A stretch of DNA of 64,000 nucleotides from Escherichia coli (GCF_017348835.2 NZ_CP071375.1); one strand, 5' to 3'. Positions 12,901-18,129 are shown, numbered from the stretch's first letter. Program-made: numbers and translations. Notes: a model not told the origin generated them from the letters alone.

Positions 12901-13131
12901 ATGCGCAAAATTACCTCAGTAAGCGTTGGCGAACAATTAGATAGTTTTATTACCCGGATGGTCCAGTCTGGTCGTTATGGCTCGGCCAGTGAAGTAATGC
13001 GTTCGGCACTTCGTCTATTGGAACAACAGGAATCCAGGGATGAAGCTGTCAGAAATGCTGTTATTGAAGGTCTTGAGAGCGGTGAAAGTTCGATGACGCT
13101 TCGTGATATCGCAGCAGAAAGGAAGCAATGA
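12901..13131 (+). CDS. ParD/CopG-like ribbon-helix-helix antitoxin, C-terminally truncated by IS insertion (stop codon TGA supplied by IS terminal repeat)
   Basis: 76-aa ORF MRKITSVSVGEQLDSFITRMVQSGRYGSASEVMRSALRLLEQQ...; ORF runs straight into the IS inverted repeat at 13129. Confidence 0.7.
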   Translation: MRKITSVSVGEQLDSFITRMVQSGRYGSASEVMRSALRLLEQQESRDEAVRNAVIEGLESGESSMTLRDIAAERKQ

Positions 13132-13170
13132 ACCGCCCCGGGTTTCCTGGAGAGTGTTTTATCTGTGAAC

Positions 13171-14058
13171 TCAGGCTGCCAGATCATTATTTCCGATGGA
13201 AGCATAATAAGCTTTTTCTGCTTCTGCCGGAGGAATATGGCCCAGCCTTTCCAGCAATCGTCGATTGTTATACCAGTCCACCCACGTGAGTGTGGCCAGT
13301 TCCACTTCTGTCCGGTTTTTCCAGCTCTTACGGTGTATTACCTCCGCTTTGTAAAGACCATTGATGCTCTCAGCCATCGCGTTGTCATACGAGTCGCCAG
13401 TACTCCCTGTTGATGCCAGTAATCCGGCTTCCTTAAGCCGCTGCGTGTAGGCCAGCGATACATACTGAGAACCTTTATCACTGTGATGGATTGTGCCGGA
13501 CGGCCGACGGGCCCACAACGCCTGCTCCAGTGCATCCAGCACGAATGTTGTTTCCATGGATGATGAGACCTGCCATCCCACGATGTATCCGGCGAACACA
13601 TCAATGATGAACGCCACATAAACGAAGCCCTGCCATGTGCTTACCCAGGTAAAATCAGCCACCCACAACTGGTCTGGACGTTCTGCCACGAACTGACGGT
13701 TTACGCGGTCGCATGCGGCAACGGCTTTCCGGCTGACGGTAGTGCGGACCTTTTTACCCCGGAGAACACCGGCAAGTCCCATAACTGCCATGAGACGTGC
13801 CACAGTGCATCTGGCCACTCTGATACCTTCCCGTAACAACTGACGCCAGACTTTACGCACACCGTATACCTGGTGATTTTCATCGTATACGCGCTGTATC
13901 TCTTTCTTCAGCCAGTCATCGTGCTGCGCACGGGCACTGCGTTTATCCGGATGATGTCGCTGTTGCTGACAATGGTAATACGTTGACGGGGCAATATGCA
14001 GTTCGCTGCATACCGGTCCGCCCCCGTACTGCTCACGCAGCTTATCCAGCAGTGGCAT
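13171..14058 (-). CDS. IS3-family transposase OrfB (DDE integrase domain)
   Basis: 295-aa [36 protein letters not shown]... Confidence 0.9.
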   Translation of the reverse strand: MPLLDKLREQYGGGPVCSELHIAPSTYYHCQQQRHHPDKRSARAQHDDWLKKEIQRVYDENHQVYGVRKVWRQLLREGIRVARCTVARLMAVMGLAGVLRGKKVRTTVSRKAVAACDRVNRQFVAERPDQLWVADFTWVSTWQGFVYVAFIIDVFAGYIVGWQVSSSMETTFVLDALEQALWARRPSGTIHHSDKGSQYVSLAYTQRLKEAGLLASTGSTGDSYDNAMAESINGLYKAEVIHRKSWKNRTEVELATLTWVDWYNNRRLLERLGHIPPAEAEKAYYASIGNNDLAA

Positions 14059-14384
14059 TATTTTTTCCAGAGGCGGTCGAACTCCGCCTTCGCAAAATAA
14101 GCGGAAGCCTGGCGAAGGATATCGTTACTGCGGCGCAGTTCACGATTTTCACGTTCCAGCTCTTTCAGACGCTGACGTTCAGCGGTGGTGAGTCCACCAT
14201 CACCACTCCCGGTATCCCGCTCATGCTGGCGAACCCAGACACGCAGAGTCTCCGGCGTACAGCCAATCTTTGGGGCAATGGAACAAATTGCCGTCCACTG
14301 TGAGTCATATTCATCCTGACTTTCCAGAACCATACGAATCGCCCGCTGACGGACTTCGGGGGAAAAACGAGTATTTTTAGTCAT
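14058..14384 (-). CDS. IS3-family transposase OrfA (HTH)
   Basis: 108-aa [33 protein letters not shown]...; overlaps orfB start, frameshift arrangement. Confidence 0.9.
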
Positions 14385-14449
14385 CCTGTTTACCTCTTTC
14401 TCAGGGAGTTTAGTCTCCAGGATTTCCGGGGCGGTTCAGCAAAAACATC

Positions 14450-14731
14450 GTGTATAAGCTTAGCGGAAAAGCTGTTGAAGATTTCAGAGGGATCTATGAC
14501 TACACGCTGGGAAAGTTTGGTGAGGAGCAGGCGGATCGCTATACCGACTCTCTCGGCACTTTTCTGGATACACTCTCTCAAATGCCCGAGATAGGGCAAG
14601 ACTATGATGCGATTCCAGAGGTAAAGAAGATCGCATTTAGGTTTCACACTGTTTATTACGTTATAAGAGTCGATGACATTCTCATTGCGCGCATTCTTCA
14701 TCAGTTGATGGAACCTCGCCGTCACTGGTAA
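14450..14731 (+). CDS. ParE/RelE-fold toxin, intact ORF, GTG start, separated from its antitoxin by the IS
   Basis: 93-aa ORF (V)YKLSGKAVEDFRGIYDYTLGKFGEEQADRYTDSLGTFLDTLSQMPEIGQDYD... of typical ParE size; begins 12 bp beyond the IS end. Confidence 0.7.
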   Translation: MYKLSGKAVEDFRGIYDYTLGKFGEEQADRYTDSLGTFLDTLSQMPEIGQDYDAIPEVKKIAFRFHTVYYVIRVDDILIARILHQLMEPRRHW

Positions 14732-14818
14732 TGTGAGAATTTCTTGACTCAGGATTGCGAAAATCCCCGCATCTTGGGAAACTGCGCGTAACCCTACATT
14801 TCATCCAGGTAACTTTTC

Positions 14819-15166
14819 ATGGCTATCATCCCAAAAAACTATGCGCGGTTAGAAAGCGGCTATCGCGAAAAAGCATTAAAAATATATCCGTGGGTCTGCG
14901 GTCGCTGTTCCCGCGAGTTTGTTTATTCCAACCTGCGTGAACTTACTGTTCACCACATTGATCACGACCATACCAATAACCCGGAAGATGGCAGTAACTG
15001 GGAATTGCTTTGTCTCTATTGCCACGATCATGAGCATTCGAAATATACCGAAGCGGATCAGTATGGTACGACCGTTATCGCAGGGGAAGATGCGCAGAAA
15101 GATGTCGGTGAAGCGAAGTACAACCCATTCGCTGACCTGAAAGCGATGATGAACAAGAAGAAGTGA
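14819..15166 (+). CDS. yajD: HNH endonuclease family protein YajD
   Basis: 115-aa ORF with HNH motif (VHHIDHDHTNNPEDGSNWELLCLYCHDHEH). Confidence 0.9.
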   Translation: MAIIPKNYARLESGYREKALKIYPWVCGRCSREFVYSNLRELTVHHIDHDHTNNPEDGSNWELLCLYCHDHEHSKYTEADQYGTTVIAGEDAQKDVGEAKYNPFADLKAMMNKKK

Positions 15167-15181
15167 TTAAAACGTAAAATT

Positions 15182-16227: not shown

Positions 16228-16379
16228 ATGTATGCCACTGTTTGAAAATCCCTTGCGGGAGTGAAAAAGGCGCAAATTGCGTTTCTAAATATTTCGTATA
16301 CAGAGGAGCCTATTATAAAAATCATTGCTCACAAAAATATGTTTCGTTTCACAGTTCTATCATTTACGTAATCGATTGC

Positions 16380-16402
16380 GTTCACGTTTACACACATTCG
16401 GG
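16380..16402 (-). promoter_or_regulatory. Candidate CRP-binding site in tsx promoter region
   Basis: tgtgtaaacgtgaacgca resembles the TGTGA-N6-TCACA CRP consensus, upstream of tsx. Confidence 0.35.
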
Positions 16403-16525
16403 CGGGGATTGTACTGACTTTCGCCCTTGTTGCAAACTTTTACTATCAATCTGGGTTATGTAAGCGGAGTAACAAAATGATGGGGAAGGATGTTGCGGGA
16501 CGCACAAAATCGCCCCGCTATACGT

Positions 16526-16819
16526 TTACTGCATAACAGGTTGAATGTCGTGGATACGTACAAAGCCTAACTGATCCACAGAAATCCCCTTTAACTGTAA
16601 CGGAATATCAACATCGCTGGGGGCGAGGACGCTGGCAGGGGCATTAATCAATTGATTCTGCACATTGATTTCCTGAAAGTTGTCTATTGTTCCCTGAATT
16701 TGCCCATATTCAACGGTTCCGCTGAATGCGGGCAAGGGATCATTCGACTCGCCCTGAATACGTAGCGTCAGGGTGGTGCCATCTGTATCAGGCGTAATAT
16801 TCACCAGCGACATACGTAA
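16526..16819 (-). pseudogene. yajI: yajI lipoprotein gene, 3' fragment (interrupted by IS copy B)
   Basis: ORF ...RMSLVNITPDTDGTTLTLRIQGESND... continues in frame from the 5' fragment once the IS and one TAA repeat are removed. Confidence 0.8.
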
Positions 16820-16873
16820 TGAACCGCCCCGGAAATCCTGGAGACTAAACTCCCTGAGAAAGAGGTAAACAGG

Positions 16874-17200
16874 ATGACTAAAAATACTCGTTTTTCCCCC
16901 GAAGTCCGTCAGCGGGCGATTCGTATGGTTCTGGAAAGTCAGGATGAATATGACTCACAGTGGGCGGCAATTTGTTCCATTGCCCCAAAGATTGGCTGTA
17001 CGCCGGAGACTCTGCGTGTCTGGGTTCGCCAGCATGAGCGGGATACCGGGAGTGGTGATGGTGGACTCACCACCGCTGAACGTCAGCGTCTGAAAGAGCT
17101 GGAACGTGAAAATCGTGAACTGCGCCGCAGTAACGATATCCTTCGCCAGGCTTCCGCTTATTTTGCGAAGGCGGAGTTCGACCGCCTCTGGAAAAAATAA
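16874..17200 (+). CDS. IS3-family transposase OrfA
   Basis: 108-aa ORF, differs from copy A by T30A (SQWAAICS versus SQWTAICS). Confidence 0.9.
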
Positions 17201-18087
17201 TGCCACTGCTGGATAAGCTGCGTGAGCAGTACGGGGTCGGACCGGTATGCAGCGAACTGCATATTGCCCCGTCAACGTATTACCATTGTCAGCAACAGCG
17301 ACATCATCCGGATAAACGCAGTGCCCGTGCGCAGCACGATGACTGGCTGAAGAAAGAGATACAGCGCGTATACGATGAAAATCACCAGGTATACGGTGTG
17401 CGTAAAGTCTGGCGTCAGTTGTTACGGGAAGGTATCAGAGTGGCCAGATGCACTGTGGCACGTCTCATGGCAGTTATGGGACTTGCCGGTGTTCTCCGGG
17501 GTAAAAAGGTCCGCACTACCGTCAGCCGGAAAGCCGTTGCCGCATGCGACCGCGTAAACCGTCAGTTCGTGGCAGAACGTCCAGACCAGTTGTGGGTGGC
17601 TGATTTTACCTGGGTAAGCACATGGCAGGGCTTCGTTTATGTGGCGTTCATCATTGATGTGTTCGCCGGATACATCGTGGGATGGCAGGTCTCATCATCC
17701 ATGGAAACAACATTCGTGCTGGATGCACTGGAGCAGGCGTTGTGGGCCCGTCGGCCGTCCGGCACAATCCATCACAGTGATAAAGGTTCTCAGTATGTAT
17801 CGCTGGCCTACACGCAGCGGCTTAAGGAAGCCGGATTACTGGCATCAACAGGGAGTACTGGCGACTCGTATGACAACGCGATGGCGGAGAGCATCAATGG
17901 TCTTTACAAAGCGGAGGTAATACACCGTAAGAGCTGGAAAAACCGTGCAGAAGTGGAACTGGCCACACTCACGTGGGTGGACTGGTATAACAATCGACGA
18001 TTGCTGGAAAGGCTGGGCCATATTCCTCCGGCAGAAGCAGAAAAAGCTTATTATGCTTCCATCGGAAATAATGATCTGGCAGCCTGA
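17200..18087 (+). CDS. IS3-family transposase OrfB
   Basis: 295-aa ORF, differs from copy A at two or more residues (G13V; T to A in SWKNRAEVE). Confidence 0.9.
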   Translation: MPLLDKLREQYGVGPVCSELHIAPSTYYHCQQQRHHPDKRSARAQHDDWLKKEIQRVYDENHQVYGVRKVWRQLLREGIRVARCTVARLMAVMGLAGVLRGKKVRTTVSRKAVAACDRVNRQFVAERPDQLWVADFTWVSTWQGFVYVAFIIDVFAGYIVGWQVSSSMETTFVLDALEQALWARRPSGTIHHSDKGSQYVSLAYTQRLKEAGLLASTGSTGDSYDNAMAESINGLYKAEVIHRKSWKNRAEVELATLTWVDWYNNRRLLERLGHIPPAEAEKAYYASIGNNDLAA

Positions 18088-18129
18088 GTTCACAGATAAA
18101 ACACTCTCCAGGAAACCCGGGGCGGTTCA

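Follow-up and report, generated by a model that had tools for sequence, protein, structure and literature searches.

How did two copies of the insertion sequence (IS) IS629 come to stand in opposite orientation around the gene tsx in a 64-kb stretch of an Escherichia coli chromosome? The pair, here called copy A and copy B, was noticed in a preliminary description of this stretch (the window, by which we mean the whole of the DNA that was analysed, at its full length). It could in principle record two separate transpositions, the arrival of one compound transposon, a genetic switch, or an error of assembly. A 7.5-kb query gave one full-length match of 100% identity, to the chromosome of PE164 (NZ_CP114128.1), a strain of pig origin (diarrhoea and blood, China). 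Very probably, the arrangement results from two independent simple transpositions of IS629 in the PE164 lineage. The identity of the elements, their insertion sites, their duplications and the un-inverted state of the locus are established.

The history of the two sites can be read from FORC_044, an O157-like genome which possesses the same locus with neither IS present. Its uninterrupted site A reads ...GGAAGCAAAAACATCG... (also given as ...GGAAGCAAAAACATCGTG...), and its uninterrupted site B reads ...ACATACGTAAAGTACCG.... When each IS was removed from the window together with one copy of GCAA or TAA, the empty junctions of FORC_044 were restored exactly. Removal in silico also gave an intact 80-amino acid ParD, the end of which overlaps the GTG start of parE by 8 nt, and, in the case of copy B and one TAA, a complete 179-amino acid YajI. 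The matching target duplications claimed at the outset, GCAA for copy A and TAA for copy B, were found in the flanks and agree with the FORC_044 sites; duplications as short as these were judged by the empty-site comparison and not by probability. The enclosed genes are those first listed: annotation and Pfam both indicate the toxin gene (parE), yajD and tsx, together with the 3’ part of yajI. They are arranged and oriented as in FORC_044 and CUPF12 (pig, NZ_CP182159.1), both of which are without these two insertions. Since the empty sites are restored and the gene order is collinear with these two genomes, there has been no net inversion and no arrival as a compound transposon, and the view that these are simple insertions between which no inversion has yet occurred holds good.

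Inverted IS copies around a cargo do have the look of Tn5 or Tn10, and one might suppose that the 5-kb unit IS-parE-yajD-tsx-yajI’-IS is a compound transposon that was inserted, or can be moved, as one piece. The outer flanks of this unit, however, differ (GCAA to the left of copy A, TAA to the right of copy B), a matched duplication surrounds each IS separately, and the supposed cargo is native chromosome, collinear with IS-free genomes. Nor does the interior occur on genuine plasmids, the plasmid matches at ≥80% coverage being records of 1.2–4.9 Mb without parE. Furthermore, both outer ends are right inverted repeats (IRR), which we infer to be an abnormal pairing; the normal pairing in IS3-family transposition is of a left inverted repeat (IRL) with an IRR. 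The probability of such a unit is practically nil. A compound-transposon origin was rejected on the duplication pattern and the collinearity with empty-site genomes, and is effectively refuted. The resemblance to Tn5, Tn10 and Tn3411, the citrate transposon bounded by IS3411, is limited to two copies of one IS flanking a few kb, whereas the present structure, with its separate duplications and native interior, arose in place by two insertions. The IS3411 copies of Tn3411 are directly repeated. The megabase “plasmid” records that match tsx-yajD-yajI are probably chromosomes, chromids or chromosome fragments, and plasmid matches of core genes need a size check.

In the two independent insertions, copy A entered parD 12 bp before its end, duplicating GCAA, and copy B entered yajI after codon 83, duplicating TAA. 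Their opposite orientation and separation of 2.4 kb are happenstance, leaving intact yajD and tsx between 1.3-kb inverted repeats. IS629 would have moved by copy-out-paste-in, as for the IS3 family, in which a circular copy-out transposition intermediate has been described (bioRxiv 10.1101/2023.06.07.543989); such an intermediate is assumed for the present copies by analogy. The features of the locus are collected in the table below.

Table. Features of the IS629-bracketed locus; positions are counted from the first nucleotide of the window
Feature	Position	Strand	Details and basis
parD, truncated	12901..13131	+	Pfam ParD_antitoxin, 79.7 bits; TIGR02606, 96 bits
Copy A target duplication, left (GCAA)	13125..13128		Flank reading; FORC_044 empty site with one GCAA
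IS629 copy A	13129..14438 (1310 bp)	-	IRR end 13129, IRL end 14438; annotated by PGAP as IS3 family transposase, programmed frameshift
orfB, copy A	13171..14058	-	295 amino acids from ATG; carries G13 and T250
ALIL pseudoknot, copy A	13987..14103	-	Rfam RF01497, 116.1 bits (gathering score 50); includes G at IS position 418
orfA, copy A	14058..14384	-	108 amino acids; carries T31
Copy A target duplication, right (GCAA)	14439..14442		Flank reading; empty-site comparison
parE, intact	14450..14731	+	93 amino acids, GTG start; Pfam ParE_toxin, 55.5 bits
yajD, intact	14819..15166	+	HNH nuclease; annotation and Pfam
tsx, intact	15343..16227	-	Nucleoside channel and phage/colicin receptor; annotation WP_001295328.1
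yajI, 3’ part	16526..16819	-	Codon 84 to stop; Pfam DUF3251 profile positions 66–157; PGAP pseudogene
Copy B target duplication, left (TAA)	16817..16819		Flank reading; empty-site comparison
IS629 copy B	16820..18129 (1310 bp)	+	IRL end 16820, IRR end 18129; repeat scan, exact comparison, annotation
orfA, copy B	16874..17200	+	108 amino acids; carries A31; Pfam HTH_Tnp_1, 47 bits
ALIL pseudoknot, copy B	17155..17271	+	Rfam RF01497, 120.3 bits (gathering score 50)
orfB, copy B	17200..18087	+	295 amino acids; Pfam HTH_21 and rve, rve_3, rve_2
Copy B target duplication, right (TAA)	18130..18132		Flank reading; empty-site comparison
yajI, 5’ part	18130..18378	-	Codons 1–83; Pfam DUF3251 profile positions 1–64

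A repeat scan revealed a single long inverted pair (arms 13128–14438 and 16820–18130, 2381 nt apart), and exact comparison placed two 1310 bp copies, inverted and with 2381 bp between them, where they had been described, the spacing having been given as 2.38 kb. The two are homologous over their full length: the reverse complement of copy A differs from copy B at 5 of 1310 bases (99.6% identity), and a 1.3-kb repeat of this identity is far beyond chance. Given as copy A/copy B, the differences are A/G at IS position 145, which results in OrfA T31A; G/T at 418 (window positions 14021 and 17237), resulting in OrfB G13V; T/G at 1067 (13372 and 17886) and G/T at 1127 (13312 and 17946), both silent; and A/G at 1128 (13311 and 17947), resulting in OrfB T250A. 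The list of differences drawn up earlier thus needs amendment: OrfB G13V and the T/A change (T250A) stand, the OrfA substitution given as T30A lies at residue 31, and the two silent changes had not been listed.

The elements have the ends TGAACCG...CGGTTCA within imperfect terminal inverted repeats of 25 bp (88% complementary; in copy A, 13129–13153 and 14414–14438). The orfB gene lies in the -1 frame relative to orfA (0 frame), with a programmed frameshift annotated by the Prokaryotic Genome Annotation Pipeline (PGAP), and the NCBIfam model for IS3 family transposases (NF033516; cut-off 160) is matched by the OrfAB fusion at 362.9 bits. A full-length ALIL (apical loop-internal loop) pseudoknot (Rfam RF01497) is present in both copies; IS3411 was the element for which this type of structure was first reported (PMC5009743). 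Phage BP-4795 contains an element annotated as IS629 to which copy B has an identity of 99.2%, the corresponding value for the copies of O157 Stx2a phages being 98.5%. At the protein level, the OrfB sequences of the two copies fall in 90%-identity clusters some members of which are named “IS629 transposase OrfB”. IS629 has sub-types which are 4–5% apart, isoforms known as IS1203 and IS3411, and a target duplication of 3–4 bp (PMC3271280), which the 4 bp GCAA and the 3 bp TAA fit. The terminal repeats, the orfA/orfB domains, the NF033516 and ALIL matches, the identity to annotated IS629 and the length of the duplications together justify the name “IS629-like” under which the pair was introduced. 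Compared with IS629 and its isoforms, the likeness extends to the length of 1310 bp, the 25-bp repeats, the 0/-1 arrangement of orfA and orfB, the ALIL and the 3–4 bp duplications, and there is no difference in kind; what is new is the sites, the 3’ end of parD and yajI, in a pig strain that is not O157, and copy A further has two rare substitutions, T31 in OrfA and, in the internal loop of the ALIL, a G. We are dealing with an ordinary pair of IS629 elements, already annotated in a published genome (NZ_CP114128.1), and not with a new kind of element.

The G in question is that at IS position 418, which falls in the ALIL internal loop (UCGGAC in copy B, GCGGAC in copy A); copy B and the five other IS629 copies compared have a T at this position. 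The internal loop and the apical loop of the first hairpin (GUUCGA) are complementary, and the change to G converts a terminal A-U pair into an A/G mismatch, for which a simple duplex calculation gives a shift from -5.4 to -4.8 kcal/mol. The substitution might make the frameshifting that yields OrfAB less frequent in copy A. Candidate slip sites in the orfA/orfB overlap are UAUUUUG, which precedes stem 1 by 5 nt, and a run of six A residues.

The distribution of the two insertions was determined with junction queries composed of 250 bp of flank and 250 bp of IS, at a threshold of ≥80% coverage, among 5,426 complete E. coli genomes. Each junction was found in one of these, PE164. IS629 is the most abundant IS in E. 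coli O157:H7; in the PE164 chromosome the terminal 250 bp of the element match at 32 places, which corresponds to roughly 30 copies of IS629 type, and there is one more on plasmid pPE164. For comparison with copies A and B we took five further ones, from pPE164, plasmid pZ1323HEC0422-4, phage BP-4795, an O157 Stx2a phage and CUPF12. The alleles of copy A at positions 145 and 418 occur in none of the six other copies (copy B and the five). Copy A differs from the pPE164 copy at two positions, both of them the alleles private to copy A, while copy B differs from the pZ1323HEC0422-4 copy at one. Positions 1067, 1127 and 1128 form a haplotype which is TGA in copy A, pPE164 and BP-4795 and GTG in copy B, pZ1323HEC0422-4, the O157 phage and CUPF12, so that PE164 contains IS629 of two sub-lineages or else a conversion tract. 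In an exact look-up among about 15 billion proteins the OrfA of copy A was absent and its OrfB occurred on one contig; the OrfA and OrfB of copy B occurred on 483 and 30 contigs, respectively. Taken with the allele and haplotype comparison, these counts indicate that neither copy gave rise directly to the other. To that extent the earlier remark that the copies are not a very recent duplicate pair was correct; it makes no statement on dates of insertion, on which the kinship of the copies is silent.

An independent event has affected the same target elsewhere. CUPF12 carries an IS629 isoform of 96.3% identity (region 5090–6399) within the 5’ stretch of yajI that encodes the signal peptide. This isoform is oriented like copy B and is flanked by a CTT duplication. 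The yajI gene has thus been struck twice independently, in PE164 and in CUPF12.

In a genome with some 30 copies of one element it may be asked whether an error of assembly or polishing could have produced this arrangement, or the base differences between A and B. PE164, an O108:H9 hybrid of atypical enteropathogenic and extraintestinal pathogenic E. coli (aEPEC/ExPEC), has a Unicycler assembly based on more than one type of read (PMC12233904), and the rarity of the copy A variants in the protein look-up would suit such an error, although the same rarity is equally expected of private mutations. Misassembly would not give clean junctions of the right length, the removal of which restores intact genes exactly. 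The three 3’ differences, moreover, form a haplotype common to independent records (BP-4795 and pPE164), and the changes at 1067, 1127 and 1128 are for this reason taken to be real polymorphisms. We consider an artefact very unlikely. Against two independent insertions there is no contradicting evidence, but two caveats do weigh on that account. The nearest sampled genomes are ca. 0.9% divergent in this region, so that no limit can be set on how old the insertions are and “unique” does not equal “very recent”. In addition, some of the single-base differences between the copies could be polishing errors, there being one Unicycler hybrid assembly of a genome with ca. 30 copies of the repeat.

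What have the insertions done to the genes on either side? Compared with the intact ParD of FORC_044, the truncated parD has lost its last four codons (KHRV), and its reading frame now ends at the TGA (13129–13131) with which the IS629 terminal repeat begins. ParE differs from its FORC_044 counterpart by one amino acid (E25/D25). As in other chromosomal parDE operons, ParD (Pfam PF03693, TIGR02606) is followed by ParE (PF05016); in genomes where this pair is uninterrupted, such as FORC_044 with its intact operon, the 8-nt overlap is present. Here the family-matching parD and parE are separated by 1310 bp of IS, so that parE now lies 1.3 kb from a parD lacking four residues, the overlap is lost, and parE is without a recognisable promoter. 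A scan for consensus promoters found no promoter-like site upstream of parE or at the IS ends; the one site it detected lies upstream of tsx, and the total number of sites was lower than in shuffled sequence. With promoter and translational coupling both lost, the expression of parE is probably reduced. Read-through transcription past an IS629 has been described in stx2::IS629 (PMC7430833), and some transcription of parE may on that account persist.

Copy B splits the lipoprotein gene yajI after codon 83, which inactivates it. The genes yajD and tsx, between the elements, are intact: Tsx (WP_001295328.1) is the same protein in CUPF12 and FORC_044, YajD is likewise the same as in reference strains, and the intergenic region upstream of tsx is untouched, with its promoter-like site at 16436–16408 (minus strand).

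The copies had also been proposed to be a ready substrate for inversion of the tsx region. A 1.15-Mb inversion in O157:H7 strain FRIK804 took place between prophage repeats, of which 174 bp sufficed (PMC7430833), and by this measure a 1.3-kb pair of 99.6% identity is a plausible substrate. RecA-dependent recombination between the copies, which would invert the segment, is possible in principle on general grounds of recombination biology. The locus resembles FRIK804 in having inverted repeats that are long enough, but it is un-inverted, the segment is 2.4 kb, and an inversion would re-join no genes. The inverted form, expected to appear at ca. 68% query coverage on one strand, was absent from the matches of the 7.5-kb search, and one orientation is on record; as neither insertion is present in any other complete genome, no inverted form could have been found elsewhere. 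Both inner ends are IRL, so that, judged by inspection of the sequence, an inverted form would mirror the present one and create no new promoter or coding junction. Inversion would thus probably be phenotypically silent and functionally near-neutral, making of the arrangement a possible silent structural polymorphism, and not a switch.

Tsx is the receptor for phage T6 and colicin K, and variable expression of a phage and colicin receptor could be useful; together with the 1.3-kb inverted repeats 2.4 kb apart, this lends some appeal to a functional invertible switch for the expression of tsx, parE or a neighbour. Such a switch is exceedingly improbable. There is no site-specific recombinase and a single known orientation, tsx retains its own upstream region within the segment, the two IRL inner junctions make the alternative state a mirror of the present one, and the consensus scan detected no promoter-like site at the IS ends. 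The occurrence of the insertions in one of 5,426 genomes, in the ancestral orientation, likewise gives no sign of selection. We hold it highly improbable, too, that either the parE-yajD-tsx segment flips appreciably in PE164, to give a mixed population with expression of tsx or of the orphaned parE dependent on orientation, or the G in the ALIL marks copy A as an attenuated element.

The two insertions are strain-specific and matter little beyond bookkeeping, as a yajI knockout and a split parDE. They do, nevertheless, offer a clean example of an insertion history read from target duplications, show an expansion of IS629 to some 30 copies in a non-O157 pig pathogen, and flag a region in which long-read assemblies of relatives might reveal an inversion polymorphism.

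The annotated gene order at the locus is tgt-yajC-secD-secF-parD-[IS]-parE-yajD-tsx-yajI’-[IS]-’yajI-nrdR-ribD. The parDE genes lie between secF and yajD in PE164 (12901–14731) and in O157-like genomes (FORC_044 region 1402–1918); they are missing from CUPF12, in which the secF-yajD gap is 126 bp (CUPF12 region 2751–2878). Present in the former and absent from the latter, parDE is a small variable island at the secF/yajD site. The remainder of the 64-kb window, from brnQ to ffs, is ordinary core chromosome. Between yajO and pgpA there is a gene for a 523-amino acid pentapeptide-repeat protein (22808–24379, minus strand), which resembles an accessory gene amid the core region, and between acpH and malZ (5075–6591, plus strand) lies a pseudogene annotated as a frameshifted “hypothetical protein”.

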